Part shown: positions 649-35,797 of the stretch, one piece after another
Layout of the letters: the number at the start of each line of letters is the position of its first letter
How positions within the stretch are numbered: the stretch's first letter is position 1
Source of the DNA: an uncultured Candidatus Saccharibacteria bacterium
GTDB taxonomy: Bacteria; Patescibacteriota; Saccharimonadia; Saccharimonadales; JANWIN01
Direction of reading: 5' to 3'
Assembly (NCBI GenBank): GCA_964520375.1
Contig: CAZFNQ010000002.1
Coordinates: 1 to 52,375 of the forward strand
Length of the DNA: 52,375 nt
Notes under the pieces: model-generated
The model's database searches: none
What the model saw: the letters and a program-made list of their open reading frames with translations, nothing else
Told to the model about the DNA's origin: nothing
Program-made: the position numbers and the translations under genes

Positions 649-1908
649 CTAGCTCTGTTGGTTTTTTATCATCTCGGTGTACCAATGTGCACTAGGCCGT
701 ATTTGCCTTGTCATGCCATTTTTTCGATCCACAGAGACCAGGCCGAACTTTGGCCACCAGCCATATTTCCATTCAAAATTATCGAGCAAACTCCAATGAA
801 AGTAACCGGCTATATCAACACCTTCGCTAATTGCTCGTTCCATGGCAATAACAGTTTCCTCTAGCCACCACTGCCGATATTGGTCCTGTTCATCGGCAAC
901 GCCATTTTCAGTCACGAATATTGGTTTTTTATGATGGGCCCAGGTCCGCATAAGTAGTGGATATAAACCCTCTGGTTCCATATACCAGCCAAGGTCATTT
1001 TGCGGTACTTTAGGGTTCTCACGCTTAAAGTTTTTATAATAATCTGTGAAATAGTAGTTAAACCCCACAAAATCTTGGTGATTTCGAACTCTTCGCAAAA
1101 ACCACCAATTCCAGGCGTACCTCATTACTTTTGTTACCGCTTGATCAACGAAGTTGTGCGGTCGTTTAGCTTGAATGTTAGCTAGCTGGGCAGCCATACC
1201 AATTTGCAGGTGTGGGTTTTGTTTTTTAAGTATCTTATAAGCCTTTTTGTGAGCTTTTACTAAATTCAAATAGACAGTCACTGCTTGCAGTGGGCTTTTT
1301 TGCTCGGGCGGCCATTCCCCTGTAACAAAACTAAAGCTAGTGTAAACATTGGGTTCGTTGAGAGTTATTATGTATTTGAGTTCTTGGCCATATTCTTCGG
1401 CTATTTTGGTGACAAATTTATAAAAGTACTTAAGATTGGAACGTTTGGTAAAGCCACCTTTATCCTCAAACCAAACTGGAACGGTCCAGTGCCAAATATT
1501 TAAGAATGGTTCTATGCCGCGTTTTTTGAGGGCCGATATATATTTTTTGTAATGATCTATGGCTGCACTATCCCATTGACCCTGTTCAGGCTCCAGTCTG
1601 GACCACTCGATGCCAAAACGGAAGGCATTGAGTCGAAGTCTTTTGGCAATATCGAAATCTTCTAGATAGTGGTTGTAATGGTCTACACCTCTACCTGAAA
1701 CGTAGTTATTTGGACTGGTCGCTCGTTTTTTAACTGCATCCCAATCGGGCACAATTGGACGCATTCGGACCTCTGCGGTATTTGCTAATTCCTTGGCATG
1801 AGCTAGCTCCCACACACTCCACTGGTTTACGGTACCACCTTCGACTTGGTGACTAGCTACACTGGCTCCCCAGTAAAAATCTTTCGGAAAAACCCTCTTT
1901 TTGTCCAT
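649..1908 (-). CDS. Glycoside hydrolase family 1 beta-glucosidase
   Basis: N-terminal FPKDFYWGASVASHQVEGG, acid/base motif TLNEPNVY and nucleophile motif VTENG. Length of 419 aa is typical for GH1. ATG start at 1908. Confidence 0.9.
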   Translation of the reverse strand: MDKKRVFPKDFYWGASVASHQVEGGTVNQWSVWELAHAKELANTAEVRMRPIVPDWDAVKKRATSPNNYVSGRGVDHYNHYLEDFDIAKRLRLNAFRFGIEWSRLEPEQGQWDSAAIDHYKKYISALKKRGIEPFLNIWHWTVPVWFEDKGGFTKRSNLKYFYKFVTKIAEEYGQELKYIITLNEPNVYTSFSFVTGEWPPEQKSPLQAVTVYLNLVKAHKKAYKILKKQNPHLQIGMAAQLANIQAKRPHNFVDQAVTKVMRYAWNWWFLRRVRNHQDFVGFNYYFTDYYKNFKRENPKVPQNDLGWYMEPEGLYPLLMRTWAHHKKPIFVTENGVADEQDQYRQWWLEETVIAMERAISEGVDIAGYFHWSLLDNFEWKYGWWPKFGLVSVDRKNGMTRQIRPSAHWYTEMIKNQQS

Positions 1909-1945
1909 TGACCTTTATTATAACTCAATTAACAAAGAGAAACTG

Positions 1946-2677
1946 CTATCGATATTCGGGGTTTTCAAAGTCAAAACGGCTACCAGCGTCCCATTTGCTG
2001 CGCTGGTTACCCCAGGCCGGTATCCCACCGCTATCTTTTATCATCTTGGCTAGGTGCATCAAATTCCAGGCCATAAAAGTAGTGTTTCGGTTTGTAAAAT
2101 CATTCTGTGGGCCGCCACTGCCCTTATCCAGGTAACTTGGTCCGGGGCCGGCTTCACCTACCCAGCCGGCATCGGCTTGCGGAGGTATTACACAACCCAA
2201 ATGTTGCAAACTGTACAGAACATTCATAGCACAATGTTTAACACCATCTTCATTGCCAGTAATAATACAGCCTCCAACTTTGCCATAATAAGCATATTGG
2301 CCCTCATCGTTTAAATCACTGGAATTGCCATATAACCTTTCAATAACACGTTTGGTTACTGAACTGTTATCTCCCAGCCAAATTGGTCCGCAGATAACTA
2401 GTATGTCAGCGTCTTGCACTTTTTTATAAATATCTGGCCAATCATCAGTTTTCCAGCCATGTTTAGTCATATCAGGGTAAACGCCTGTGGCAATATCATG
2501 GTCAACGGCGCGGATTATTTCAATATTGACGCCATGCTTTTGCATAATATTTGTACTCAATTTTAAAAGCCCCTCTGTATTACTTACCTCTGGTGATTTT
2601 TTAAGCGTGCAATTAAAGTAAAGCGCTTTTAGATCGCTAAAGTCCATACTTTTCGTAACTTTATCTCGTGCTGCCAT
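1946..2677 (-). CDS. Flavodoxin-fold NAD(P)H-dependent FMN reductase/oxidoreductase
   Basis: ALYFNCTLKKSP near the N-terminus and ADILVICGPIWLGDNSS resemble the FMN_red / NAD(P)H dehydrogenase (quinone) family. Family-level call only. Confidence 0.65.
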   Translation of the reverse strand: MAARDKVTKSMDFSDLKALYFNCTLKKSPEVSNTEGLLKLSTNIMQKHGVNIEIIRAVDHDIATGVYPDMTKHGWKTDDWPDIYKKVQDADILVICGPIWLGDNSSVTKRVIERLYGNSSDLNDEGQYAYYGKVGGCIITGNEDGVKHCAMNVLYSLQHLGCVIPPQADAGWVGEAGPGPSYLDKGSGGPQNDFTNRNTTFMAWNLMHLAKMIKDSGGIPAWGNQRSKWDAGSRFDFENPEYR

Positions 2678-2699
2678 TTAATTCTCCAATCTTAGTTAA

Positions 2700-3506
2700 C
2701 TAATGCCAGCCTACCACATGCTCGCCTTGTGACAAACCGTCAATTTTGGCAATATCTTCAACCGTTAGAGTAATTTCTTGCGAGTCCAGATTTTGTCTCA
2801 TACGCTCTGCGTCAGTAGTTTTTGGTATCGGTATTGTTTCATGCGTAATAGCCCATGCTAGCATAATTTGTGCACTTGTGGCTTTATGTCTCTCAGCAAT
2901 ATTGCCAATAACTTTGTCATTGGCATGGCGACCGCGGGCCAGTGGACTGTAGGCCTCGACAATTATATTATTTTTACGGCAAAACTCTAGCACAGGCTTT
3001 TGATCTTTGTAAATATAGGGATGGAATTCAATTTGATTAACGGCTGGCTTAACTTTTGCAGTTGATAACAGTTCTTCTAAATGGGTAGCCATATAATTAG
3101 ACACGCCTATGTTCTTGGCTAGACCACTTTTATTAATTTCTTCCATGGCCTTCCAAGAGTCGGCACGTCGCGGGGCATCATGCCCGGGCCAATGTATAAG
3201 ATATAGATCCACATATTCTAGGCCCAAGCGCTCAAGAGAATCATTAAAGGCCTTGTGTGCACTCGCATAACCCTGGTCGCTGTTCCAAAGCTTGGTAGTT
3301 ACAAATATATCCTTGCGCGGGACTTTAGAATCTCGCACGGCCGACCCGACTCCGGCTTCATTTCCGTAAATTTTGGCTGTATCAATTAAGCGATAGCCTG
3401 TTTCAATGGCTTTCAACACTTTTTTGTGAACGCCAAAAATTATTTGCCAAGTACCATAACCAATACCCGGCATTTGCTTCCCAGTGTTGAGTTTAACGTA
3501 CTTCAT
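2700..3506 (-). CDS. Aldo/keto reductase (2,5-diketo-D-gluconate reductase-like)
   Basis: MPGIGYGTWQ, IDTAKIYGNE, DLYLIHWP and GVSNY are AKR signatures including the catalytic Asp/Tyr/Lys/His context. 268 aa. Confidence 0.9.
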   Translation of the reverse strand: MKYVKLNTGKQMPGIGYGTWQIIFGVHKKVLKAIETGYRLIDTAKIYGNEAGVGSAVRDSKVPRKDIFVTTKLWNSDQGYASAHKAFNDSLERLGLEYVDLYLIHWPGHDAPRRADSWKAMEEINKSGLAKNIGVSNYMATHLEELLSTAKVKPAVNQIEFHPYIYKDQKPVLEFCRKNNIIVEAYSPLARGRHANDKVIGNIAERHKATSAQIMLAWAITHETIPIPKTTDAERMRQNLDSQEITLTVEDIAKIDGLSQGEHVVGWH

Positions 3507-3520
3507 TACCCAATTTACCT

Positions 3521-4147
3521 TTATTGGTCGGCTTTATCGGTTCTCGGTCTGCTTCTATATGCCAGCTCATTGCGTAATTTATCTAGGCGGACAATATAGC
3601 TGTCAAATTCTTTAAGTAACTGAGAATACTGCCAGTTGGGTGTCATGATATTTTGCAGTTTGCCCTGTTCCTTTAGATATTCGGCCAGACTATGGAAATC
3701 ACCATCGCCAGATACAATTATGGCTTTATGGTAATTTTTAAATTCTTTCATTGTCCATAGCACCAAGTCCGCATCTATATTGCCTTTAATTGGAGACTTC
3801 CTGGCTGTGGGATCTTGCTCAGGTTTTTCAGTATTTGTCGGGGGATCTTGCTGACTAACAGATAGGCCTTCAATCTGCGCCTGATGAGGCTTTGAAAGGT
3901 CAGAAGTGGGTTTTAGTACTACCAGGTAGCCGCTGTCATGTAGCTGTTGGTACAAATCTTCAAATTCCGGCATATAGCCAATAAACATGTAAGCGTTGGT
4001 AACCTTATATTTACTACGCAGATAATGCCGGAATTTGCGCCAGTCCATTTTCCAACCCATCTTTTGAGTACCCAGGTTTAGGTTTTGGCTATCAATAAAA
4101 GCGTAATTGTTGTCGCTTGAGTTTCTAGATTGTCTTGGTTTGAGCAT
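3521..4147 (-). CDS. NYN (LabA-like) domain protein, putative RNase, with a Pro/Gln-rich insert
   Basis: NYAFIDSQNLNLG near the N-terminus, then IKGNIDADLV and IIVSGDGDF, match the NYN/PIN-like acidic motifs. A low-complexity insert (QQDPPTNTEKPEQDP) sits between them. Confidence 0.65.
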   Translation of the reverse strand: MLKPRQSRNSSDNNYAFIDSQNLNLGTQKMGWKMDWRKFRHYLRSKYKVTNAYMFIGYMPEFEDLYQQLHDSGYLVVLKPTSDLSKPHQAQIEGLSVSQQDPPTNTEKPEQDPTARKSPIKGNIDADLVLWTMKEFKNYHKAIIVSGDGDFHSLAEYLKEQGKLQNIMTPNWQYSQLLKEFDSYIVRLDKLRNELAYRSRPRTDKADQ

Positions 4148-4177
4148 TATTTTAGAGTTTTTGGGATAATGCTTATG

Positions 4178-4561
4178 CTACATCCCAGTCGTAACGTTTA
4201 AAATATTACCATCCGGATCTTTAAACCAAGCCGCTTTTAAATCTTCTAGAATATGGATATCGCCCTCGCGTTTGACACCCGGTATATTGTCGTATTGTTC
4301 GAAAGTAATACCCTTGCCTTTTAGCTCATTAACCACTGCTTCAATGTCTTTAATCTCCCAAGCTGCAGAGGTAGCTTTGTTTGTACCTGCAAAGGAAGAA
4401 GTATAAACAAGAACTTGAGAATTGCCACTTTTATAAATGACGCCCTGTCCGCTGCGCTCATCTTTTACGGCTTTCAGGCCAAGCTTTCCCTCGTAAAATT
4501 CTTTTGCTACCTTAAGATCCTTAACCGCAATTGTGGGAATAATGTTTGCATCTCCCAACAT
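4178..4561 (-). CDS. VOC (glyoxalase/bleomycin-resistance/dioxygenase) family protein
   Basis: 127 aa. IAVKDLKVAKEFYEGKLGL and FKDPDGNIL are typical of the VOC fold. An AGGAGG Shine-Dalgarno sequence lies about 7 nt upstream of the ATG. Confidence 0.75.
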   Translation of the reverse strand: MLGDANIIPTIAVKDLKVAKEFYEGKLGLKAVKDERSGQGVIYKSGNSQVLVYTSSFAGTNKATSAAWEIKDIEAVVNELKGKGITFEQYDNIPGVKREGDIHILEDLKAAWFKDPDGNILNVTTGM

Positions 4562-4636
4562 AATAAAACCTCCTTTTTATAAAAATTGATAAATTTTACT
4601 AATTTTGGTTTATAACTTTAGTATACGCCACCTACT

Positions 4637-5206
4637 TCAGATTTCACTAGGCCAATGTAAGAATTTATACCATTTGCCTTTTGCCACATAGGCACACATT
4701 GGGTGAGTCTCTAAATATTGATTCGTGTATCGGCCATCCAAACCCCAGGCAATCAACCTATGGAGTCCATCTACGTGATATAAAGCAGTTTTAATCTTAA
4801 CATGTCCTTTGTAATGGCCCATGGCCTTAAAACGGGTCGACAAAAATATTGGGCTAAATTCGCTATGTTTAAAATGTTCAATTGTTTTAACGCATTTGGG
4901 ATTTTTAGATTTATATTCTAGCTTTTTAGCTCTTTTATAAACACTTTTAAGTAGTGCGCCCTTCTTTGGTATTAAAATGTATTTTGAGTGAGCATGACCT
5001 GGCATAAGTATTGACAATACATCATCGCGCGATAGCCTGACTTTATACCAGTTACCAACGTGTTTCTCGGTCCAATTTAGACACCATAAACTAACTTCTT
5101 TTTGCCAATTATTATAAGGGTATTGTTTTAAAAACTCCTGTTTTACTTCGCTAAAACTAACCCGCTGAGCTTCTGTCATATGATTGTACAGTCTTATCAG
5201 ATTCAA
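4637..5206 (-). CDS. Uncharacterised protein with a C-terminal ParB/sulfiredoxin-fold-like domain
   Basis: SPIFLS...LYHVDGLHRLIAWGLDG...MCAYV matches the ParB/Srx pattern PI.V...y.vDG.HR..A...G. DGLHR was verified at 4757-4771. The track start at 5206 is TTG; the first ATG is at 5179. Either start overlaps the upstream ORF. Confidence 0.5.
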   Translation of the reverse strand: MNLIRLYNHMTEAQRVSFSEVKQEFLKQYPYNNWQKEVSLWCLNWTEKHVGNWYKVRLSRDDVLSILMPGHAHSKYILIPKKGALLKSVYKRAKKLEYKSKNPKCVKTIEHFKHSEFSPIFLSTRFKAMGHYKGHVKIKTALYHVDGLHRLIAWGLDGRYTNQYLETHPMCAYVAKGKWYKFLHWPSEI

Positions 5207-6149
5207 GTTTAAAAAATTCTGCTATATGTTTCAGATACAGAACTATGTGGTCTTTTTCTTCGTCGGATAGAATTTTCACATTATGTCTTCCAGATATAAC
5301 TGGCGTGAGTTCGTCTACTAGTTGTGTAAACCATTCACTCCATTGATAACGCCTTGAACTGCGAACAATCCTTCCTAGAGAATTAGTAACTGTTTGAAGA
5401 CCCCAATAGACTGTCTCTATATTACAAGCGGCTTTAAGATCATCTGAACACTCAGACTTTTTGGGTTCATCTTGCGACCTATAGTCTTCGATTGCCCGTA
5501 AGTCAGCTTTCTGACCAAGGTAAGTGCCGACAAGTGTCTGCAAAGCTATACCATGAATTATGGGCAGACGAGCACTAGCCTCTAAGCTCTTATGTGCTTC
5601 CTCTAAGACAACATTCGCGGCAGTGTAAGCAATGTTTTCAATTTTATCGCTATAACGAGCTTCTAAAGCTAATGTTTCTTTTCTAGACAACATGGCTCCA
5701 GCAATACTTTTAACAATTTGCTCTGAAGTCGGAGTAGTTAAATCGTAAGTCTCGATTGTGCCAGATTTAAATCGGCTTGCCTCATAGCCATATCCATTTA
5801 GTATATTATGTTCATCATGTTCAAAAACCTTCGTAAAAAACCAGGCCTCACTCACAATGCTTTTCATATCCTCCATGTCCTCCGGTTGAGGAAGAATATC
5901 TGGACGAGGGCGAGCATCGAGTCTTATATGCGTATTAACTTTCCCTGGTTCAAAGTCTCTACATACATAGACCTCAAACCAAGTTTCATTGGGTTCAGTC
6001 TCTCGCACACTTAACAAGAAGCCCCCGTACCGTTCTATTGGATTAGTTATTCGTTCAGCTGTTAGATCGGGAACTGATTCTAGATTTGGTCCGTGTGTAT
6101 CTCCTATCATAGAAAGTATATTATAAAACAAATCATTGAAAATAGTCAA
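5157..6149 (-). CDS. Hypothetical 330-aa protein, no recognisable domain
   Basis: Long ORF with a TTG start at 6149 (alternative ATG at 6110). It overlaps the downstream ParB/Srx-like ORF by 23-50 nt. No motif recognised. Confidence 0.5.
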   Translation of the reverse strand: MTIFNDLFYNILSMIGDTHGPNLESVPDLTAERITNPIERYGGFLLSVRETEPNETWFEVYVCRDFEPGKVNTHIRLDARPRPDILPQPEDMEDMKSIVSEAWFFTKVFEHDEHNILNGYGYEASRFKSGTIETYDLTTPTSEQIVKSIAGAMLSRKETLALEARYSDKIENIAYTAANVVLEEAHKSLEASARLPIIHGIALQTLVGTYLGQKADLRAIEDYRSQDEPKKSECSDDLKAACNIETVYWGLQTVTNSLGRIVRSSRRYQWSEWFTQLVDELTPVISGRHNVKILSDEEKDHIVLYLKHIAEFFKLESDKTVQSYDRSSAG

Positions 6150-6170
6150 TCATAACATTTGGACCATTAA

Positions 6171-6575
6171 CTAGTTAGAAATTGAATTCGGGGACTGTGG
6201 TGGCTGATTAGCTGATGGCGGCGAGAGCGAAGCCAATTGGGCTCTAGGAGTTATATTAATATCAGTCGAGCCAGATGGTTTGCTAACATGGTCGCCGATA
6301 TTTAAAATCTGGTACTTGCCCTCTGATATTTGCCAGTTAATCATTTTCCCTAAGTCAGTTTGTACTTTTATATTATATTGATGGGAGACATGGTTGATTC
6401 TTTTGCCAAATCTTATAGTAGCTGGCTTTTTAAGACTCAAGTTATCGTTAGCTATTTCTTGTACGTCTTTATCTGTAACTACTCCTTCAAAAGTTATGTT
6501 CCGTCGTCGAACATAGAGTGTTACCACCGCAGCAGCAATTGCTGCGAAAAGTCCTATAATCAGTGCGCTCTTCAT
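6171..6575 (-). CDS. Hypothetical single-pass membrane protein with a Pro/Ser/Gln-rich tail
   Basis: N-terminal TM segment (ALIIGLFAAIAAAVVTLYV followed by RRR), a small extracytoplasmic domain, and a C-terminal SPPSANQPPQSPNS tail. Confidence 0.5.
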   Translation of the reverse strand: MKSALIIGLFAAIAAAVVTLYVRRRNITFEGVVTDKDVQEIANDNLSLKKPATIRFGKRINHVSHQYNIKVQTDLGKMINWQISEGKYQILNIGDHVSKPSGSTDINITPRAQLASLSPPSANQPPQSPNSISN

Positions 6576-6624
6576 AGTTAAAAATTATACTCTTATTTAA
6601 TTTGATACGATCACTAAGCTTTGA

Positions 6625-6966
6625 TTATGTATCAATAGTTTCAATTGCACTCGGCACTGAGTGATTAGTAGCCGGTTGGGGACCTTTTTTCTTGGGGGTT
6701 GGAACAATTTTACCACTATCAAACAATTCTCCTCCCCAGACGCCTCCGTATTGACGAGTCTCTTTTGCATACTGAAGGCATTCGACATTCACAATACAGC
6801 CTCGGCATAAGGCTTTAGCCCGTTCAACATCTTCTCGATCGGTTGAATAGAATAGTTCTAGCATAGTACCCTCATTATCATTGCATACACCTGCTTTGTA
6901 CCAATTTAGATCTTTATTCGGTGATTCTGGCACGCCCTCACCCATCTCTGCAGAAGGTATTGCCAT
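6625..6966 (-). CDS. WhiB-like (Wbl) [4Fe-4S] transcription factor
   Basis: Four Cys arranged C28-X25-C54-X2-C57-X5-C63 (ALCRGCIVNVEC), followed by the GVWGG turn motif and a basic tail (TPKKKGP). The ATG at 6966 lies 3 nt after the glyQS stop. Confidence 0.85.
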   Translation of the reverse strand: MAIPSAEMGEGVPESPNKDLNWYKAGVCNDNEGTMLELFYSTDREDVERAKALCRGCIVNVECLQYAKETRQYGGVWGGELFDSGKIVPTPKKKGPQPATNHSVPSAIETIDT

Positions 6967-9814: not shown

Positions 9815-10507
9815 TTAGCGATGAATAAACTGCTGGCGCATGGATTTAACTATTCCTAGACTGTTAGTCAAAACCTTATCAAGATCTCCGACTTGACCCA
9901 GTTTAAGCGGTGATTGCAACCCAAATGCCAAGCGTATGAGTTTAATATGATTGGCACCAATAGTACCTGCTGGCCGGGCCATAAATGCCATTTTATCAAT
10001 ATCAAAACCGTACTTTGTATTTTGATTAAGTTTACTGCCGCTGGTATCGGTTTTTAAATTAGGCGAATGGCCTGCCAGCTTTAATATCTGAGCATACAGC
10101 CATAGTTCAATGGCCGGTTGTGGTAAGCTAGTTTCATCTAACGCTTCCAATGCGTAGCTAAGCAGCTCAAAATACTCCTCACCGGCGTTATCTTCTACCG
10201 TTTTATTAATTAATTTTATAATTTCGTAGCCAAACATAGTACGGTTTATATCGCTAGCAATGCGACTAAAATGTTTTTGCAAACGGCTAGAAATCAGAGT
10301 GTAAATTTCACTTCGGCCATGTATGAAGCTAATCTGACTTATGCTGAACAATTCTATACCGCCAGCTAATTTGCTTTTAACTTTACGGACACCCTTAGCA
10401 ATAACCCGTATTCGTCCGTGATCGGGTGTTAAAATAGTCAAAATACGATCGGCTTCACCAAAATCTGTGCGACCTAGCACTATGCCAGTAGTTACGACCC
10501 GGTTCAT
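9815..10507 (-). CDS. recO: DNA repair protein RecO
   Basis: An N-terminal OB-fold pattern (GIVLGRTDFGEADRILTILTPDHGRIRVIAKGVRK) and a length of 230 aa are typical of RecO. Its start overlaps the upstream stop as ATGA. Confidence 0.85.
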   Translation of the reverse strand: MNRVVTTGIVLGRTDFGEADRILTILTPDHGRIRVIAKGVRKVKSKLAGGIELFSISQISFIHGRSEIYTLISSRLQKHFSRIASDINRTMFGYEIIKLINKTVEDNAGEEYFELLSYALEALDETSLPQPAIELWLYAQILKLAGHSPNLKTDTSGSKLNQNTKYGFDIDKMAFMARPAGTIGANHIKLIRLAFGLQSPLKLGQVGDLDKVLTNSLGIVKSMRQQFIHR

Positions 10508-10887
10508 TGCGCCGTAGTCAGGATATTGTCAACTGAGTTATTGAGAGTAGCTAGTTTGGTTACAGGTTTATAGTGATACGCCACAATATGCAAATTATCC
10601 CAGAGCATAGAGCTTATAGCCTTAAGTGTCGGCGGTACCAGACTATGAACTATAACTGGTACGGTTTGCCAGTCCTGATAGGAGCGCAGTTCATATAAAA
10701 ACTCAATGCCATTATGAACTGGTAATTGTAATTCCAATATTACGATATCCGGCTTAAAGCTATCAACTCCGTGAATGGCCGCTTGGGCGGTGGCGCATAC
10801 TTTAATCTTATGGCCCCGGTTTTTTAGAGAATGTATCAATGTTTGGGCCAAGTTGATATCCGGTTCAACAAGTAAAATCTTTGCCAT
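10504..10887 (-). CDS. Atypical single-domain response-regulator receiver with Glu at the phospho-acceptor position
   Basis: CheY-like layout: ILLVEPD, PDIVILELQLP (Glu where the acceptor Asp sits), VIVHS (Ser at the T87-equivalent) and YHYKP (conserved Lys-Pro). There is no output domain. Confidence 0.75.
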   Translation of the reverse strand: MAKILLVEPDINLAQTLIHSLKNRGHKIKVCATAQAAIHGVDSFKPDIVILELQLPVHNGIEFLYELRSYQDWQTVPVIVHSLVPPTLKAISSMLWDNLHIVAYHYKPVTKLATLNNSVDNILTTAQ

Positions 10888-17453: not shown

Positions 17454-17867
17454 TTATATATTTAGATGTCGTTTAATGCGGTCCACCACATCAGCAATAA
17501 CGACCTGAGATTTGACTAAATAATCATCCACGCCCAGACTTTTTGCCCGCTCGACATCACTTGCTTGGCTAAGAGCAGTCAGCATAATAATTTTTACATT
17601 GCCTACCTCTGGGGTATTTCGCAAAATATCTAAGACGTCAAAGCCACTAACTTTTGGCATCATAACATCTAGCAGTATTAAATCAGGGCGATATTGGAGG
17701 GTTGCAGTTAAAGCATCCTCACCATTGGGTACTCGCTTAACGTCAAAACCTTCAGCCTGTAACCTAGTTAAATAGACTTCGGCTAGAGCGTCATCATCTT
17801 CTACCAGTAGAACTTTTTTGGGTTTTTGGTCGGGCTGGTCTCGGGTTGGACTTGGTTGATTTACCAT
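17454..17867 (-). CDS. Canonical single-domain CheY-like response regulator
   Basis: VLLVEDDD, DLILLDVMMPKVSG (acceptor Asp present), IIMLTAL and DDYLVK (Lys) are all canonical. No output domain, and no kinase gene is adjacent. Confidence 0.85.
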   Translation of the reverse strand: MVNQPSPTRDQPDQKPKKVLLVEDDDALAEVYLTRLQAEGFDVKRVPNGEDALTATLQYRPDLILLDVMMPKVSGFDVLDILRNTPEVGNVKIIMLTALSQASDVERAKSLGVDDYLVKSQVVIADVVDRIKRHLNI

Positions 17868-29075: not shown

Positions 29076-29441
29076 CTAAACGCTGCGGCGGCGTAATACT
29101 CGGGCTAATACGCGGCGGTGGATACGTGATTTAGAGTGGGTTTCTTTATACTTTCTTAGCTGGTTTTTAAGTTTTTGTTCCACGATATCCACTGCGGCAT
29201 ACATATTTACCGTTGTCTCCTGAGTAGTAAGTGTAGCTTGTGGCAGGAATAGAATAACTTCACAAGTAGCTTGTTTTCTGGCTTTAATGCTAGTTTCTTT
29301 AAGTTTGACCTCTGCATGAGCAGACTGGCGCACATGGCGGTTCATATACTGATCTAATCTGCCGATCTTTTTAACCACATATTTGCGCAAATCATCGTCT
29401 ATTTTGGCATGTACGCCGCTGATTTCTAATTTTTGAATCAT
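29076..29441 (-). CDS. hpf: Ribosome hibernation promoting factor / RaiA family protein (short form)
   Basis: 121 aa. The pattern LEISGVHAKIDDDLRKYVVKKIGRLDQY...AVDIVEQKLKNQLRKYKE is typical of the sigma-54 modulation protein/S30EA family. Confidence 0.8.
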   Translation of the reverse strand: MIQKLEISGVHAKIDDDLRKYVVKKIGRLDQYMNRHVRQSAHAEVKLKETSIKARKQATCEVILFLPQATLTTQETTVNMYAAVDIVEQKLKNQLRKYKETHSKSRIHRRVLARVLRRRSV

Positions 29442-29459
29442 GTTTGTTCCCTATATTTA

Positions 29460-30713
29460 CTATACAATGTAATCTTTGCCATTTATGTATGGTTTTAGAG
29501 CATCTGGCAAAAGCACTTTGCCGTCGGCCTGCTGGTTGTTCTCAATCAACGCTATATAGATGCGACTAAAAGCGGCGGCCGTAGCGTTAAGCGTATGCAC
29601 GAAATTTATTTTACCGTCCATGTCTCGATAACGGATATTTAAACGTCGAGCTTGATAATCTGTAACGTTTGAACAACTCATTAGTTCACGGTAAGTTTTA
29701 TCGATTGGGCTATAATACTCGATATCAAATTTTTTGTATGCCGGCGCACCTAAATCGCCAGATGCAATGCGAACCAGCCTATAAGGTATGCTCAGGATTT
29801 GGCAAATTTCTTCCTCTATAGCAATAAGTTTCTGGTGCCATTGCTCACTATCTTGGGGCTGACAAAATACATATAGCTCTAACTTATTAAACTGATGCAC
29901 ACGGAATAGACCTTTACTGTGCTTGCCGTAAGCACCGGCTTCACGGCGATAGGATGGGCTGATACCAGCGTACAATTTAGGCGCTTGGTTTATATCTATA
30001 ATTTCATCTGCATGATATCCAGTCAGTGGTATTTCTGCAGTCGCTATTAAATGTAAATCTTCATCTGCTACTTTATAAATTTGTTGCTCCTCACCTTTTG
30101 CCAAAAAACCGGTACCGTCTATCGTTTTTGTATTTACCAAATGCGGTACGCTCATTAATGTAAACCCGTGTTTTAGTGCAGTTTGCAGACCAAGCTGAAA
30201 AACAGCCTGTTCGAGTTCTACCAAAGCTCCCAAAGTGAAATAAAACTTGTTACCAGCTACTTTGGCACCGCGTTCGAAATCCAGCAAGCCACGTTCCTGG
30301 GCCCAAGTTAAATGGTCTTTTACATCAAAACCTTTAGATTCAGAGCTACCCCATTTTTTTACTTCTTGATTGGCAGATTCGTCTCCAATTGGCGTATCAT
30401 CTGGGAAGGTGTTAGGCACAGACTTGAGTAACACCTGAAAGTCTGTTTCTACTTGTTCGAGTTGTTTATCTAGCTCATTTAACTGTTGCTTGGATTCTTT
30501 AAGTCTAGTACGTTGCTCTTCGCTCGGTGGTTGGGCTTTAAATTCCTCGGATGCTTTATTTAGGTTAGCCCTTAGTTCATCTGTTCTTTGAATAAATTCC
30601 CGCCGTCTGTTATCCAGATCTAAAAGATGATTTATATCTATATCGTAACCTTTTTGTTTGGATTTTTCGGCCACTCGTTGGCTATTGTCCCGGATAAACT
30701 GAATATCTAACAT
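29460..30713 (-). CDS. serS: Serine--tRNA ligase
   Basis: MLDIQFIRDN start, an N-terminal coiled-coil arm, and class II motifs (FRVHQFNKLE, TLNATAAA). 417 aa. Confidence 0.95.
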   Translation of the reverse strand: MLDIQFIRDNSQRVAEKSKQKGYDIDINHLLDLDNRRREFIQRTDELRANLNKASEEFKAQPPSEEQRTRLKESKQQLNELDKQLEQVETDFQVLLKSVPNTFPDDTPIGDESANQEVKKWGSSESKGFDVKDHLTWAQERGLLDFERGAKVAGNKFYFTLGALVELEQAVFQLGLQTALKHGFTLMSVPHLVNTKTIDGTGFLAKGEEQQIYKVADEDLHLIATAEIPLTGYHADEIIDINQAPKLYAGISPSYRREAGAYGKHSKGLFRVHQFNKLELYVFCQPQDSEQWHQKLIAIEEEICQILSIPYRLVRIASGDLGAPAYKKFDIEYYSPIDKTYRELMSCSNVTDYQARRLNIRYRDMDGKINFVHTLNATAAAFSRIYIALIENNQQADGKVLLPDALKPYINGKDYIV

Positions 30714-30720
30714 GGCTACA

Positions 30721-31527
30721 TTATACCTTTTTCTTTTTTCCCTTTTGCTTAGTTTGTAAATCTCTAAGCGTTAGCTCGGTGCGGGCTTTAGCATACGCAC
30801 AATAATCACATTCACCACCCATTGCGGCTGTACCTACAGCCGGCATATCGCCTTCCATACAAGCTTTCATTTTAATAATTGTGGGCTCCACCCAGCTGTC
30901 GTCTCCCTTATAAGGAATAACTTTGGTACGAAACTCTACCTTGTCAAAAAATCCATCCAAATCTAGCCTACCATTGGTATACACGAAATAGGCCATGTCG
31001 CTTACGTCCAAGCCATTTCGGCGCAGTAACCATTGGTAAATCTCCATTTGGCGCTTGTAACTTATTTGCCAGTCGGCGTCCAGAGTAATCTCCGCCGCCT
31101 TGGCGGTCGCTTTATAATCCACAACACTGACTTGCCCATTGGCATCGACCCAAATATCATCAATCGCCCCAAAGATATGCAGGTTAGTCGCTTCATGCAA
31201 GGCAGCCACGCCTGTAAAGTTATGTCGCCATTTATCCAGATCATCATGCTGAAACGGCACGGCATTGATTTGGTTGTCGGTCATTAGAGGATGCGGTTCA
31301 CCTTTGGCGCGGTAAACATCAAACTCTTTTTTTAAAAGTTCGTCTATTGCTTTGTTTATTTGAAACGGTGGGCTGCTGGGGCGTTTAATTTTAAGTCGTA
31401 CGTCGAGCCAAAAGCAACGGGGGCACTGTGTAAACAGTTCAATTTTACTGCGGGAAAGCTTAAACGGCGCCGTTTGCCCAGGTTGGTACGGTTTATTACG
31501 CTCTGTCCAATAATTATTTGCCCCCAT
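30721..31527 (-). CDS. PD-(D/E)XK nuclease, Cas4/AddB-like, with four flanking Cys (probable Fe-S cluster)
   Basis: N-terminal CPRC, GAIDDIW (motif II Asp), VVDYK (motif III D/E-x-K), QMEIYQ (QxxxY) and C-terminal CDYC. Confidence 0.75.
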   Translation of the reverse strand: MGANNYWTERNKPYQPGQTAPFKLSRSKIELFTQCPRCFWLDVRLKIKRPSSPPFQINKAIDELLKKEFDVYRAKGEPHPLMTDNQINAVPFQHDDLDKWRHNFTGVAALHEATNLHIFGAIDDIWVDANGQVSVVDYKATAKAAEITLDADWQISYKRQMEIYQWLLRRNGLDVSDMAYFVYTNGRLDLDGFFDKVEFRTKVIPYKGDDSWVEPTIIKMKACMEGDMPAVGTAAMGGECDYCAYAKARTELTLRDLQTKQKGKKKKV

Positions 31528-31535
31528 ATTAAGGA

Positions 31536-32150
31536 CTATTGTAACAGTTCTAGTAGTTGCGAAGGTTTGGAAACTAAGTAGTCTGGTTTGTGAGCCTTTA
31601 AGATCTTATCGGCGTTGTAACCCCAGTTTACAGCGATAGACACTATTTTGGCTTTTTTAGCCGCATCAATGTCCCTAGTTTCATCACCAATAGCATAGGT
31701 CTCTTTGGCTGACAGTTTGTATCTTCTAATTATGTGTTTAAGCGCCGTGGTTTTACCAAACAAGCCAGTGTTGCCGTGAATACCATCAAAATACTGATTT
31801 ATACCCTGACTTTTTAAAAACTTGCGGATATTTTGAGGACTATTGCTGCTCATCACAAACAGTTTATGACCCCGACTGTGTAGCTGGTCTAAAACCTGCG
31901 GTATACCATCAAATACCGACACTTCGGTTAGACGCTTGCCAAATTGAGTCCTAGCTTGCACGAGCAAGCTAGGTACGCGCCAAAGTGGTATACCAACGGT
32001 GCGTATAACATCTTTGAGCGTCATATTACGCAAACGTTGTACTTTATCTGGTGGGAATGGCTCGATTTTTGCCCAGCCATAAAATAAGTCCATGGCCAGT
32101 GGTAGCGAATCGGCAATAGTACCATCAAAATCAAAAATTATATTAGCCAT
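31536..32150 (-). CDS. HAD-superfamily hydrolase (phosphoglycolate phosphatase/PpaX-like)
   Basis: Motif I IIFDFDGTIADS, motif II VMSSNS and motif IV GDETRDID. It starts 3 nt after the heliorhodopsin stop. Confidence 0.85.
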   Translation of the reverse strand: MANIIFDFDGTIADSLPLAMDLFYGWAKIEPFPPDKVQRLRNMTLKDVIRTVGIPLWRVPSLLVQARTQFGKRLTEVSVFDGIPQVLDQLHSRGHKLFVMSSNSPQNIRKFLKSQGINQYFDGIHGNTGLFGKTTALKHIIRRYKLSAKETYAIGDETRDIDAAKKAKIVSIAVNWGYNADKILKAHKPDYLVSKPSQLLELLQ

Positions 32151-32153
32151 CTA

Positions 32154-32954
32154 TTAACGAAGTATGCCAAAAAAGATTTGCCAGGCCAACGCAGTTTTGA
32201 CCACAAAACTGATTATCATATAAATTTGCTCACCGTAAAGGTAATTGGCCCACTTGCCCTTTGCCCTAAACACTAGCCAAATATTAGCTGCCATGAACAG
32301 AGTAAGCACAAAAATAGATACATCAAGCCAATATACATAGTGAGGCAAGCCATTGCCATATAACAGAGCTCCTTTTATATAGGCGGCTACAACCAGCCAC
32401 ACTGCGCCGCCAGCGGTAATAAGACCTAAAAAGCTATGCCGCTGGACACGTCTAGTTGCTGTATTGATCTCCCCTAAGAAAGCCAGCAAGTTTAGCAATA
32501 CGACCAGAACAAAAATAGTTAAGATTGTTGAAACGTCATATATGCCATTAAGCATTGCTATAGCAATAAGCATGATGCCGCTACTAAGAGCGTAATTAAT
32601 CCACCGCAATTGGTTAAAACCCTGTTTTAAGTCTTTTTCATAGCGTTTACGCAGGTTTGTGGTTAAAAGAAAATGAACCAGCGCTGAAATCAGTAAGAAT
32701 GCTGCAACCAAATATGCCAGCCTGATATCAAATGCATGCCTAACAGCCAGCGCCATAACATTGTGACCAGCAGCCTGTGAGGCAAGTGTATCCGGAGCTA
32801 AATAATGTGTCACAACCGGCAGACTTACAGACTTACTAAAAATAAGTATGGCTACAGCTTGCAGGCCAAATAGCACCGCTAGCCCAATATTCCATTTGTA
32901 AAGGCTTTCAAAGTTGATACTTTTACTCCGTGATTTTGTCTTTTTTGCAGCCAT
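32154..32954 (-). CDS. Heliorhodopsin family 7-TM retinal protein (counterion-position variant)
   Basis: Collinear by eye with the reference heliorhodopsin 48C12. LRWINYALSSGIMLIAIA aligns with FRWVEYSLSSSVMIVLIA, and KGKWANYLYGEQIYMIISFVVKTALAWQIF with KGKWSNYLRGERAYIVLSLVAKSALAWQIF. SALVHF carries the H80 equivalent. The Schiff-base Lys is kept (K253, aaa at 32196-32198). The N-terminus is basic. Confidence 0.85.
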   Translation of the reverse strand: MAAKKTKSRSKSINFESLYKWNIGLAVLFGLQAVAILIFSKSVSLPVVTHYLAPDTLASQAAGHNVMALAVRHAFDIRLAYLVAAFLLISALVHFLLTTNLRKRYEKDLKQGFNQLRWINYALSSGIMLIAIAMLNGIYDVSTILTIFVLVVLLNLLAFLGEINTATRRVQRHSFLGLITAGGAVWLVVAAYIKGALLYGNGLPHYVYWLDVSIFVLTLFMAANIWLVFRAKGKWANYLYGEQIYMIISFVVKTALAWQIFFGILR

Positions 32955-32979
32955 GCGATAACTATATCATAGCCTGGGT

Positions 32980-33228
32980 TTATTGGCCTTTTTTATCAAG
33001 TTTAATTTTTTGAATAGCTAATATTGCCCATGTTGTGGCAATAGCCAAAGCAGTTAATGCCGAAAACCAGAGTCTTAAAGTTAGTAAACAGAAAGCAATG
33101 ACGCCAACTAAAATAATGTTCATGACACTTGTTGATGAAGCCGGTTTATCGTTACTTTTTATGCTGGGAACCATGGCGATAATAAAACATAACTGAGCGA
33201 CCGAGATAACTATGTCTTGCCAACGCAT
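32980..33228 (-). CDS. Small 3-TM membrane protein, weakly PQ-loop/SemiSWEET-like
   Basis: 82 aa with three hydrophobic helices. AMVPSIKSNDKPASSTS loosely resembles the PQ-loop motif (lPQi.k...k...S), but Gln is replaced. The function call is speculative. Confidence 0.4.
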   Translation of the reverse strand: MRWQDIVISVAQLCFIIAMVPSIKSNDKPASSTSVMNIILVGVIAFCLLTLRLWFSALTALAIATTWAILAIQKIKLDKKGQ

Positions 33229-33247
33229 TTAAGTCAGTATAGCAAAT

Positions 33248-33736
33248 TTATTTTACTGGGGCGTACGGTATGTGGCACATGCCTCTACCGGTTTTTTCTG
33301 TATATTTTTGGTGGTATTCCTCAGCTTTATAAAACTCAGCTGCTGGTACAATTTGGGTGACGATTAGCTTATCAAAACTGGGTTGTAATTCTTTTTTGAC
33401 CTTATCTGCCAATATTTTTTGCTGGTTATCATAATAGAAAATTGCCGAGCGGTAACTATCACCGACATCAGGGCCTTGGCGATTTAATTGAGTTGGGTCA
33501 TGCATTCTAAAAAATTGTTTTAGCAGGGTCTCATAGCTAACTTTAGTTGGGTCAAACTCAATTAATACTACCTCGGCGTGCCCAGTTGTATGCGTGCAAA
33601 CTTCCTCATAACTCGGATTTTTAGTGTGGCCACCACTATAACCAACAGTGGTTTTAATAACTCCTGGTACTTGGTCAAAATAATACTGCACTCCCCAAAA
33701 ACATCCAGCCGCAAATAGTGCTTTTTCACTTTTCAT
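33248..33736 (-). CDS. msrA: Peptide-methionine (S)-S-oxide reductase MsrA
   Basis: Catalytic GCFWG motif (FAAGCFWGVQYYF) and YHQ near the C-terminus. 162 aa. Confidence 0.95.
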   Translation of the reverse strand: MKSEKALFAAGCFWGVQYYFDQVPGVIKTTVGYSGGHTKNPSYEEVCTHTTGHAEVVLIEFDPTKVSYETLLKQFFRMHDPTQLNRQGPDVGDSYRSAIFYYDNQQKILADKVKKELQPSFDKLIVTQIVPAAEFYKAEEYHQKYTEKTGRGMCHIPYAPVK

Positions 33737-33738
33737 AA

Positions 33739-35271
33739 TTAATACTCCAAGCGTAAACGTTTAATAAGCCAATCTCTGGGAAGTGTGCTCAAGAACCAAC
33801 CAGCGCGCGGTCCAGAATCTTTGCCAATTAATGCACGGTAGAGCGTTTGGAATAGATCTTTGGGTTCCATGCCGGTACTATCCTTAAAGTCATAAATTGC
33901 CTTGTGAAACCATGCCCCGTCGGCATTCTCAGGAGCCCGTTCTATTTTATCTGCTAATTGGTATAGAAATTGCTTTTGTGCGTCTGTAAACTTGCCGGCA
34001 TCTACTGTTTTGGCCAGTTCAAATTTAACATCCTCAGGTGCCCAGTTTTTAAGCCATTGATCGATGTACTTCAGTTCGTCTATTAGGACCTGCGTGTCTT
34101 GTTCTATCCCATAGCCCTTGTCTGCCGCCCTTTTGATAATATCGATTGTCTTTTCGGGATCTTTGAGCGCCGCCTGATAGCTAGCTACAAGATGCGAAAA
34201 AGGCACCCGGCTGATAGTGAGATTAAGCTCTGCGCAGCAAATTTCTATTAACTGCTCCTCCTCTTTGGATTTTTCCTTCTTACTAAGCAGTTCGGCAAAT
34301 TCATCAATTAACTGCGATACACCGTTAACCGGGTCAAAGTACAATCTTTTAGAGGGCGCACTACGTAACATGAAATAACGCACTATTTCCGGCGGTAAAA
34401 CCTTCACAACACCCTCAGCATCAAGGCCAGTACCTTTGCTAGCACTCATCTTTTTGGTATCACCTGTCATATTTACAAAGTCGTATGGAACTGGTAGGGG
34501 TGGCTTAGCTGCAAAAACATCCCTAACCATGGCTGCGCCCGTATCAAAACTGCCACCCTTAGTAGCATGATCGCGTCCAAAAGGTTCAACATTCACATTC
34601 AACAGCCACCACCGGGCCGGCCAGTCAATTCGCCAATCCAGTTTTACTTCGCCTCGAGTGTAGCCAATAGTTCTCTGTTGCCCGTCTTTATCTTTGTAAG
34701 CAATAGTTTTGGCAACTGTGTCGATACTTACAAAACGACGTTTTTTGAGATAGCCGTCTTCATTTATTTGTACTGGTGACCATTCATCGCCGAGCTTATG
34801 TCCTGAAATATTTTCCAATATGCCACGTACGGTGCTTGCGTTTTTGAGAGCCTTCTCAATTGCCTGTATAAAAAACCCTGATCTATATTTATCGTGCGCT
34901 AATATAAATTCGACATCTATACCCAACGTTTTGCTTGGTAGAATAAGTCCCTGCAGGAAATAATCAGCATACGATTTAGTGGGGTCATTTGGTGATGGAA
35001 TGTCACAAAGTGACCTACCTAAATATTTTTCATATTCTGAAGGTACGTTTATCGGAATTTTTCGCAGTGCATCCAGGTCATCTATGAAGGCAACGTGGCG
35101 GGCTTGCCGTCCTCGGTGTTTAAGCTCTAAGCGGATGGCATCAGAGGTTATAAGTTCACGCAAATGCCCTAAATGGTAGGTGCCTGAGGGTGAACTGCCC
35201 GATTCTATTAGTATTTCACCACTGGGAAAGTGAGCTATAATCTCATCAACAATACTATTGAGCCACTGCAT
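33739..35271 (-). CDS. lysK: Lysine--tRNA ligase, class I
   Basis: Class I Rossmann signatures HLGH (SPSGTYHLGHLRE) and KMSASKG (KMSKS), with a class I LysRS layout. 510 aa. Confidence 0.9.
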   Translation of the reverse strand: MQWLNSIVDEIIAHFPSGEILIESGSSPSGTYHLGHLRELITSDAIRLELKHRGRQARHVAFIDDLDALRKIPINVPSEYEKYLGRSLCDIPSPNDPTKSYADYFLQGLILPSKTLGIDVEFILAHDKYRSGFFIQAIEKALKNASTVRGILENISGHKLGDEWSPVQINEDGYLKKRRFVSIDTVAKTIAYKDKDGQQRTIGYTRGEVKLDWRIDWPARWWLLNVNVEPFGRDHATKGGSFDTGAAMVRDVFAAKPPLPVPYDFVNMTGDTKKMSASKGTGLDAEGVVKVLPPEIVRYFMLRSAPSKRLYFDPVNGVSQLIDEFAELLSKKEKSKEEEQLIEICCAELNLTISRVPFSHLVASYQAALKDPEKTIDIIKRAADKGYGIEQDTQVLIDELKYIDQWLKNWAPEDVKFELAKTVDAGKFTDAQKQFLYQLADKIERAPENADGAWFHKAIYDFKDSTGMEPKDLFQTLYRALIGKDSGPRAGWFLSTLPRDWLIKRLRLEY

Positions 35272-35338
35272 AATAAGATAGTATACAGATATTAGTGATC
35301 AGCTTGTAGATGTTGGTAGTTTGCAATTTACTTGGAAT

Positions 35339-35797
35339 CTAGTAGATATCGACAATCTTGTAGATTGCAACTTCTGAATTGGCTTTTATTTCTACCATTT
35401 CACCCTCTTGTTTTCCCAGAAGAGCTTGACCAATTGGCGATTCATCAGAAATTTTACCGTTTAGAGGATCGGCCTCAACAGTACCGACAACTTGGAAATC
35501 TTTTGTCCTGCCATGGCCTTTAAGTTTTACGCTAGAGCCTAGTTGAACTTTGCTATCGCCGCGGGGTTTAGTTATAATCTCGACATTTTGTAAAATATGC
35601 TCAATTTCAGCAATGCGACCTTCCACGATTTCCTGCTCCTGGCGAGCGGAAGTATACTCAGCATTTTCAGCCAAATCACCAAATTCACGGGCGGTTTTAA
35701 TGCGCTCGGCTATTGGTCCGCGTTGTTCCAGCAATGCCTTGTGCTCAGTTTGGAGTTCTGCGACACCTTCTTTGGTCAGGTGAAATTGCTTTTTCAT
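35339..35797 (-). CDS. greA: Transcription elongation factor GreA
   Basis: Coiled-coil finger containing DLAENAEYTSARQEQ (the acidic tip DxxEN.EY). 152 aa. Confidence 0.9.
   Translation of the reverse strand: MKKQFHLTKEGVAELQTEHKALLEQRGPIAERIKTAREFGDLAENAEYTSARQEQEIVEGRIAEIEHILQNVEIITKPRGDSKVQLGSSVKLKGHGRTKDFQVVGTVEADPLNGKISDESPIGQALLGKQEGEMVEIKANSEVAIYKIVDIY

Follow-up and report, generated by a model that had tools for sequence, protein, structure and literature searches.

The window analysed here, a stretch of 52,375 nucleotides from an uncultured Candidatus Saccharibacteria bacterium, carries a heliorhodopsin (HeR) gene whose product has asparagine in place of the carboxylate counterion and retains the Schiff-base lysine. 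The gene (32154..32954, minus strand) is an intact open reading frame (ORF) that starts with ATG and encodes 266 aa; its product is termed Asn-type below and labelled P0001. By its sequence, fold, topology and lysine, the ORF encodes a full-length heliorhodopsin, and the Asn variant is real, rare in nature and under purifying selection. We give about an even chance to the reading that it is a retinal-binding HeR whose Schiff base is either stabilised by an anion or deprotonated, as suggested by the retained residues and by analogy with engineered counterion mutants.

Protein family, fold and Schiff-base residues

The assignment to the heliorhodopsin family, already proposed in a sequence-only reading of the window, was borne out by profile searches and matches to solved structures. 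The protein covers the entire Pfam profile Heliorhodopsin (PF18761; positions 1-242 of 242, E 3.6e-61, 207 bits, cut-off 26.7) and scores 193.9 bits against the NCBIfam HeR equivalog NF038020 (cut-off 100). A phmmer search against PDB sequences matched it to TaHeR (6is6, E 1.8e-39) and 48C12 (6su3, E 5.6e-30), with RWINY standing opposite RWFEY/RWVEY and SFVVKTALAW opposite SLVAKSALAW in the respective alignments. The AlphaFold2 model, which was built with 111 homologues and has a predicted local distance difference test score (pLDDT) of 93.8, contains seven helices and a long AB beta-hairpin (strands 44-54 and 67-78). Foldseek superimposed this model on TaHeR 6is6 with query and target TM-scores (TMq and TMt) of 0.87 and 0.93 and a root-mean-square deviation of 1.6 Å, and on 48C12 6su3 with a TMt of 0.88, whereas the best type-1 rhodopsins reached a TMq of just 0.5-0.64. 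When lysine and arginine residues were mapped on the modelled helices, 16 fell on the N-terminus and the BC, DE and FG loops versus 4 on the AB, CD and EF loops and the C-terminus. This positive-inside count fits an inverted topology with a cytoplasmic N-terminus, in agreement with the earlier argument from charge distribution. The remark that the gene resides in a reduced genome likewise agrees with the source lineage, Saccharibacteria.

Residue columns were assigned by phmmer pairwise alignment, by a MAFFT alignment of 268 sequences and by hmmalign to a hidden Markov model (HMM) of 90 canonical HeRs, and all three agree. The 268-sequence set was drawn from an exhaustive search of 1.84 billion proteins and joins 120 clusters (90% identity) and 150 representatives (50% identity), the nearest ones in each case. 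The single carboxylate counterion of transmembrane helix 3 (TM3), which is Glu or rarely Asp, is absent from the window HeR: pairwise alignment, multiple alignment and profile HMM all give Asn120, neither Asp nor Glu, at the very codon that the sequence-only reading had singled out, and the family assignment holds (Table 1). The kept lysine, K253, and the serine four residues before it were also placed correctly from the sequence, S249-F-V-V-K253 standing opposite S237-L-V-A-K241 of 48C12, and the SxxxK motif of TM7 is present. In 48C12, S237 is the second hydrogen-bond partner of the Schiff base (PMC7049168). The two histidine calls of that reading agree with the alignments as well, the H80 equivalent being retained as H94 and the column of H23 being occupied by Phe29.

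Similar to the canonical proteins 48C12 and TaHeR, the window HeR combines the family profile match, the predicted seven-helix fold, the AB beta-hairpin, the charges expected of an inside N-terminus and SxxxK in TM7. It keeps the equivalents of S76, H80, Y92, N101, R104, Y108, S111, E230, S237 and K241, together with W105, W246 and Q247. The MAFFT and hmmalign columns pair S90 with S76 and E242 with E230, and the MAFFT alignment has Arg in the R104 column in 263 of the 268 sequences. Seven of the eight polar residues of the Schiff-base cavity (H23, H80, N16, Y92, N101, R104, Y108 and E230) are thereby retained, H23 being replaced by Phe. Unlike canonical HeRs, the window protein has Asn at E107, Phe at H23, Val at P172, Thr at F206, Gln at R231, Val at N138 with Asn at the I142 position, Ile at Met/Gln213 and Val at Q216.

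A newly gained acidic residue that could act as an alternative internal counterion was considered and rejected. Inspection of the Asn lineage and its subclade for gained acids revealed only three subclade-specific ones, E16, D108 and D211, all of them away from the Schiff base; D133 of the second Asn-type protein, P0002 (see below), is not shared with the window HeR. Asp211 (32322-32324, minus strand; column of 48C12 I199) is located in helix F, within its normally hydrophobic extracellular half and two turns above F206, and is near-invariant in the subclade that lacks His23. Charged residues in the extracellular half are rare in HeRs and have been suggested as possible determinants of function (PMC7049168).

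Rarity, selection and ancestry of the Asn variant

Just two sequences carry Asn together with Lys, which raises the question of an artefact, that is, an error of sequencing or assembly, or a pseudogene in decay. Nothing was found in favour of this explanation, and we regard its probability as negligible. Four contigs, which come from at least two sequencing runs, encode the identical protein, and Asn is kept in an orthologue, P0002, that is 71% identical, contains both RWINY and the lysine and lies on a syntenic contig (CAZZAE010000015.1, an uncultivated Saccharibacteria metagenome-assembled genome, MAG). The nearest genomes to the window are uncultivated Candidatus Saccharibacteria / Saccharimonadales MAGs, of which CAZZAE010000015.1 is the closest. 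The Asn codon is AAT in the window and AAC in P0002, a synonymous difference, and the nearest Asp-type orthologue (locus L004) has GAC, one transition away. Between the two Asn-type genes the nonsynonymous divergence (dN) is 0.17 and the synonymous divergence (dS) about 2.1, which is near saturation; the resulting dN/dS of about 0.08 is similar to that of neighbouring genes. The four contigs and the AAT/AAC codons rule out a sequencing error or pseudogene; the full-length ORF and the high-confidence fold prediction also speak against one. The variant is real and under purifying selection, as demonstrated by the contigs, the orthologue with its synonymous Asn codon and the low dN/dS. The Asn-type sample consists of two sequences, apparently both from one SRA series.

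The survey of the counterion column showed how rare Asn is at this position. Among the HeRs of 80 GTDB species-representative genomes, 78 have Glu and one has Asp, with Asn found only in the P0002 genome, and a set of 80 HeRs from JGI metagenomes uniformly carries H23/E107/K241. All 90 proteins of the 268-sequence set that keep both His23 and Lys have Glu, so that the H/E/K combination is invariant across the 170 canonical HeRs examined (90 plus 80). Within the 268 sequences, Asn and Lys occur together only in the window HeR and P0002; eight more proteins keep Lys and have G, A, T, V, Q or L as the counterion residue, but these are degenerate at other Schiff-base positions too. Further members of the Asn lineage were sought with the P0001 and P0002 alignment in JGI metagenomes, where nothing closer than 46% identity was detected, and among GTDB species representatives, where the P0002 genome alone was retrieved. 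Kovalev et al. named Glu107 as one of the residues with high conservation across all 479 HeRs known at the time (PMC7049168), and no description of a natural Lys-bearing HeR without a carboxylate was found in the literature searched. The candidate phyla radiation (CPR) survey by Chiriac et al. 2022 covered the same phylum and family, with 80 Saccharimonadia HeR instances and SxxxK motifs such as SLVAK and SFVAK (PMC9166423); its checks were confined to topology and SxxxK, with no discussion of the residue in the counterion column or of Asn, Asp and Lys-less forms. As a separate observation, the Lys-bearing cluster representative P0196 (302 aa) contains RWIQEA, with Gln in the counterion column and Glu in the Y108 column, and its counterion may be shifted by one residue.

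In a neighbour-joining tree of Kimura distances (200 bootstraps), P0001 and P0002 form a clade with 99% support, with deeper nodes below 40%. This Asn clade falls within a fast-evolving group that has F, Y or L instead of His23 and in which the counterion is mostly Asp (P0003-5, 8, 13, 15, 20 and 121); the Glu-bearing P0006 and P0007 are nested in the same group. Judging from the states of all near neighbours rather than from a resolved tree, the counterion of the immediate ancestors was most likely Asp and not Glu, with His23 already lost and about ten otherwise invariant pocket positions remodelled. Only five changes are fixed in the Asn lineage at positions otherwise conserved in 13 sister sequences, namely N78R, D120N, G122A, L179I and R243Q. 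Among them, D120N and R243Q remove opposite charges in or near the cavity; R243 corresponds to 48C12 R231 and adjoins E230. Gln at 243 is found in both Asn-type proteins and also in the Asp-type P0004.

One further column differs within this group. The Asp-counterion sisters P0003, P0004, P0005, P0008, P0013 and P0121 share a conserved His in the column of window Asn155 (48C12 I142), which lies near the beta-ionone ring and is Asn in canonical Saccharibacteria HeRs and in the window HeR. This His is a possible colour-tuning or protonatable site.

Possible retinal binding and its alternatives

In solved HeR structures, two ion pairs cap the cytoplasmic cavity of the Schiff base, that of the protonated retinal Schiff base (RSBH+) with Glu107 and that of Arg104 with Glu230 (PMC9385722). 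With Glu107 protonated or mutated, an anion enters the cavity, chloride in TaHeR and acetate in 48C12 (PMC9385722, PMC7049168), and His23 reorients on anion entry in both proteins (PMC9385722). The 48C12 mutants E107A and E107Q and the TaHeR mutant E108A bind anions, by which the Schiff base stays protonated, and E107A/Q need them for protonation at pH 7 (PMC9385722); chloride, bromide, iodide or nitrate serve as surrogate counterions in E107Q/A and E108A (PMC9385722; PMC7049168). Most HeRs with a neutral counterion were predicted by the authors to behave likewise (PMC9385722). Retinal fluorescence persists in cells for both 48C12 E107N and E107Q, with E107N photobleaching faster (PMC10238734).

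By analogy, the window HeR appears functionally closest to these engineered E107N/Q mutants. Like them, and like 48C12 E107A and TaHeR E108A, it combines a neutral counterion side chain with the lysine, and the mutants bind retinal. However, the mutants are single substitutions in proteins with His23 and a canonical pocket, whereas the window HeR is natural, has been kept over a dS above 2, lacks His23 and Arg231 and has a remodelled pocket. The mark of surrogate-counterion rhodopsins, a neutral counterion residue together with the Schiff-base lysine, is present as N120 and K253. Halorhodopsins, which belong to the type-1 rhodopsins, have chloride in place of a carboxylate counterion. Coral ASO-II opsins also employ chloride as counterion (PMC12401545). 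Both are natural pigments without an acidic counterion in which a bound halide stabilises the protonated Schiff base, and the window HeR resembles them in concept; they differ in family, fold or topology, and their anion sites are experimentally established, whereas anion binding by the window HeR is predicted only. The anion dependence suggested in the sequence-only reading by analogy with type-1 rhodopsins has a firmer basis in the HeR mutants, because 48C12 E107A/Q and TaHeR E108A themselves take up anions.

In this lineage the counterion was neutralised, most likely from Asp to Asn by a single G-to-A change. The lysine and the serines beside it were retained, as were His80, Tyr108 and, in the cytoplasmic cavity of the Schiff base, the Arg104/Glu230 pair. 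Retinal binding, anion dependence and output of the window HeR are what we infer from the parallels above, as follows. Scavenged all-trans retinal would be bound at Lys253. In one state, the Schiff-base proton would be held by an anion in the cavity (chloride, acetate, bicarbonate or nitrate) and water, giving a visible absorption that depends on the anion; in the other, with no anion bound, the Schiff base would be largely deprotonated and would absorb in the near-ultraviolet (near-UV) or violet. The outcome would be a slow, non-pumping regulatory photoreceptor with a colour, pKa and photocycle unlike those of canonical HeRs, which might report the cytoplasmic anion level or pH. A Schiff base would also account more readily than a free amine for a buried lysine that lacks a carboxylate partner.

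Ordinary HeR function with a substitute counterion, with essentially canonical, anion-independent spectra and photocycle, seems improbable to us. The candidates for this role would be Glu242 (E230), acting through a water cluster and aided by the loss of Arg243, or Ser249 with water. E242 is invariant and R243Q takes away a nearby positive charge in the Asn lineage, but the Asp-type P0004 also has Gln at 243, and in solved structures the partner of E230 is R104, at the cavity's far end, and not the Schiff base (PMC9385722); this arginine is retained here as R117. The effect of the counterion on colour is unusually small in HeRs: E107D was reported to cause no spectral shift (bioRxiv 10.1101/2020.06.24.168591), and E107A with chloride has the wild-type absorption maximum (PMC9385722). 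A network of S237 and water has been proposed to stabilise the protonated Schiff base in E107Q (PMC10238734); on the other hand, E107Q/A needed anions for protonation at pH 7, as described above, and the only subclade-specific acids, E16, D108 and D211, provide no new acidic residue near the Schiff base.

Several observations weigh against retinal binding by the window HeR. The anion-responsive His23 of TaHeR and 48C12 is replaced by Phe, and light exposure of the source is unverified, as the literature searched does not mention SRP200132 or SRR9179559/60/63. The subclade has substitutions at positions whose conservation among canonical HeRs is at least 94% (P172V, F206T, M141L, F209L/M, Met213 to I/T, Q216V and S113G), and P0002 has Pro at S76. 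Loss of the carboxylate accompanies loss of the lysine, as only 10 of the 84 proteins without Glu or Asp in the 268-sequence set keep Lys. Across 19 pocket positions taken from the 48C12 structure paper, the two Asn sequences are 79% identical at 71% overall identity, in comparison with a mean of 94.5% and a minimum of 84% for 297 canonical pairs at 66-76% overall identity. Between the Asn pair, conservation is lowest in helix C (43% identity), against 80-100% identity in the N-terminus and in loops AB, BC, EF and FG; the pair's retinal pocket and helix C diverge as fast as the background or faster. Finally, orthologues at the same locus repeatedly lack the lysine: five such proteins were checked (P0010, P0009, L068, P0135 and P0059), and all are encoded in the conserved Saccharibacteria locus (Table 1).

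Some of these observations support the main alternative, which we hold to be a serious possibility, although not a probable one, in which the protein is a scaffold on the path to a retinal-free, light-independent role and its chromophore site is under relaxed selection. The role might be the regulation of a partner through the conserved loops and the cytoplasmic cavity, or a structural role in the membrane; Asn120 would then be one symptom of the relaxation, and Lys253 would merely not yet have been replaced. Apart from the replaced pocket residues, the low pocket and helix C identity and the Lys-less orthologues, such a role is favoured by the family at large. About 100 of the 268 sampled members lack the Schiff-base lysine, having Q, A, L, V, T, S, Y or R instead, and most of them also lack the carboxylate, yet they keep R104, E230, N16, N101, W105 and W246. 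By sequence, these Lys-less HeR-family proteins form a large radiation, of which no published description was found in the literature searched. Precedents are known among type-1 relatives: Rh-noK, haloarchaeal opsin-like proteins and FArhodopsins have all kept a rhodopsin fold under selection after loss of chromophore function (PMC10308929; bioRxiv 10.1101/2025.04.29.651185), and FArhodopsins often keep the lysine and reportedly bind no retinal (bioRxiv 10.1101/2025.04.29.651185).

The same comparisons also provide evidence against a retinal-free scaffold. Unlike Rh-noK, the window HeR and P0002 keep the Schiff-base lysine, and the window HeR keeps all polar residues beside the Schiff base. 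These are the ones that Lys-less relatives lose, S76, H80, Y108, S111 and S237 being absent from the Lys-less proteins. A charged lysine buried in TM7 with neither retinal nor a carboxylate should be selected against, and Lys-less relatives have neutral replacements there or a D/R pair. In the Asp/Lys core of the sister group, the remodelled pocket is 91-96% identical at about 55% overall identity, and therefore close relatives still constrain it and it is likely to be functional in them. Moreover, 48C12 E107N still carries its chromophore, as cited above. The retinal-binding reading retains the even chance that we gave it at the outset. The description of the protein as a natural counterion variant stands in so far as Asn and Lys occur in an intact HeR; that it is a clean variant is one of two live readings, and retinal binding is unsafe to assume because of the remodelled pocket of its ancestors, the Lys-less orthologues at the locus and the rate at which the pocket and helix C evolve.

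Locus and implications for the heliorhodopsin family

The HeR gene belongs to a tightly packed run of genes on the same strand, encoding GreA, class-I LysRS, MsrA, an 82-aa membrane ORF, HeR, a HAD hydrolase, a PD-(D/E)XK nuclease, SerRS and HPF. A tblastn comparison of the neighbours with 80 related loci recovered the same order across Saccharimonadia, and this gene order identifies the window gene as orthologous to the ordinary HeR of Saccharibacteria rather than as a stray paralogue. In its extended form, the conserved arrangement reads GreA-LysRS-(MsrA)-HeR-(HAD)-PD-(D/E)XK-SerRS-HPF-SecA (window 29076-35797, minus strand; L001-L073).

The HAD hydrolase gene starts 3 nt past the HeR stop codon, and in about 28 of about 62 loci from Saccharibacteria a HAD gene immediately follows HeR; MsrA often precedes HeR. 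Neither HAD nor MsrA is among the ten classes of HeR neighbours described previously (PMC11109279). Same-strand gaps of 3-25 nt suggest that HeR and HAD are likely co-transcribed; promoter and terminator scans around the locus gave counts not above the shuffled expectation, and tRNA and Rfam scans of the window found nothing. Conserved gene order is by itself no proof of functional coupling in genomes this compact. The 82-aa ORF has about three hydrophobic segments, with copies 78-83% identical in L001 and L004 only and a dN/dS of about 0.05 versus L001; it matched no Pfam family even at E-values up to 10 and gave one sub-threshold ArnF-like NCBIfam match.

Table 1. Coordinates of the heliorhodopsin gene, its Schiff-base residues, adjacent genes and Lys-less orthologues
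Feature	Location	Strand	Assignment or basis
HeR-family gene, Asn-counterion variant	32154..32954	-	intact ORF, Pfam, NCBIfam, AlphaFold2, Foldseek
Asn120, codon aat, counterion column (48C12 E107, TaHeR E108)	32595..32597	-	pairwise, MAFFT, hmmalign, sequence
Lys253, codon aaa, retinal Schiff-base lysine column (48C12 K241)	32196..32198	-	pairwise, MAFFT, hmmalign, sequence
Ser249 (48C12 S237), retained	32208..32210	-	MAFFT, hmmalign
Phe29, column of 48C12 His23, Schiff-base cavity histidine lost	32868..32870	-	MAFFT, hmmalign
His94 (48C12 H80), retained	32673..32675	-	MAFFT, hmmalign
Arg117 (48C12 R104), half of the retained Arg/Glu ion pair capping the Schiff-base cavity	32604..32606	-	alignment
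Glu242-Gln243, codons gag caa (48C12 E230-R231), Glu kept, normally conserved Arg now Gln	32226..32231	-	sequence
HAD-family hydrolase, phosphoglycolate-phosphatase-like	31536..32150	-	Pfam HAD_2 1.1e-33; NCBIfam matches all below cut-off
Predicted small membrane protein, 82 aa, directly upstream of HeR, 25-nt gap	32980..33228	-	ORF call
Peptide methionine sulfoxide reductase MsrA, conserved upstream neighbour	33248..33736	-	Pfam PMSR 1.4e-65
P0010, counterion/Lys column D / Y	L083:8001-8861		orthologous locus
P0009, counterion/Lys column D / R	L084:8001-8861		orthologous locus
L068 protein, counterion/Lys column E / Y	L068:8001-8765		orthologous locus
P0135, counterion/Lys column G / A	L168:7001-8137		orthologous locus
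P0059, counterion/Lys column G / L, Rifle RIFCSPHIGHO2 Saccharibacteria (groundwater-series) genome	L169:7001-7828		orthologous locus

Among window ORFs of at least 100 aa (about 52 kb of genome), Pfam scans detected no retinal or carotenoid genes (blh, crt, carotenoid oxygenase) and no type-1 rhodopsin, in line with the earlier remark that retinal biosynthesis genes are not visible here, and otherwise showed housekeeping genes. Saccharibacteria do not synthesise retinal, and their rhodopsins are loaded with exogenous retinal (PMC9296517). Elsewhere in the window, stand-alone response-regulator receiver-domain proteins are encoded at 10504-10887 and 17454-17867 (both minus strand), 14-22 kb from HeR, and no histidine kinase turned up in the Pfam scans of the window; two-component genes near some HeRs have been reported by Bulzu et al. 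Upstream of the housekeeping genes, the region 649-6966 (minus strand) encodes a GH1 glycosidase, an FMN reductase, an aldo/keto reductase, NYN-domain, glyoxalase-fold and DUF6309 proteins and a WhiB-like regulator. The group from which WhiB is best known, the Actinobacteria, usually provides the hosts of Saccharibacteria.

The function of HeRs is still largely open, and the single Glu counterion has been treated as a family invariant (PMC7049168). If the window HeR binds retinal, it would offer the first natural test of the predictions made from E107Q/A/N, that is, dependence on a surrogate anion, a Schiff base of lower pKa and a changed photocycle. If it binds none, then together with the Lys-less orthologues it would indicate that the HeR scaffold is selected for something besides light capture, which would have a direct bearing on the question of HeR function. 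In either case, its value lies in being part of a natural allelic series that runs from canonical E/K to Lys-less forms; the graded states found at one orthologous locus (E/K, D/K, N/K, D/R, D/Y and G/Q) constitute an experimental panel.

A broader and more speculative proposal, which we put forward tentatively and consider rather unlikely as it stands, is that the Saccharibacteria HeR is a core syntenic gene with a light-independent job performed by its conserved loops and cytoplasmic cavity, and that light sensing is an add-on that has been shed stepwise, with the window protein as a living intermediate. The light-independent job might be to regulate the co-transcribed HAD phosphatase, or might involve a link to the neighbouring MsrA. 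The shedding would have proceeded through the loss of His23, then Glu to Asp, then Asp to Asn and then the loss of the lysine, and the intermediate could be either a naturally occurring HeR that is anion-gated or UV-shifted, or the final stage that still bears Lys, ahead of retinal loss. If this proposal is true, those functions of heliorhodopsins that depend on light would be told apart from those that do not by comparing the window HeR with its orthologues of the Asp type and without Lys.

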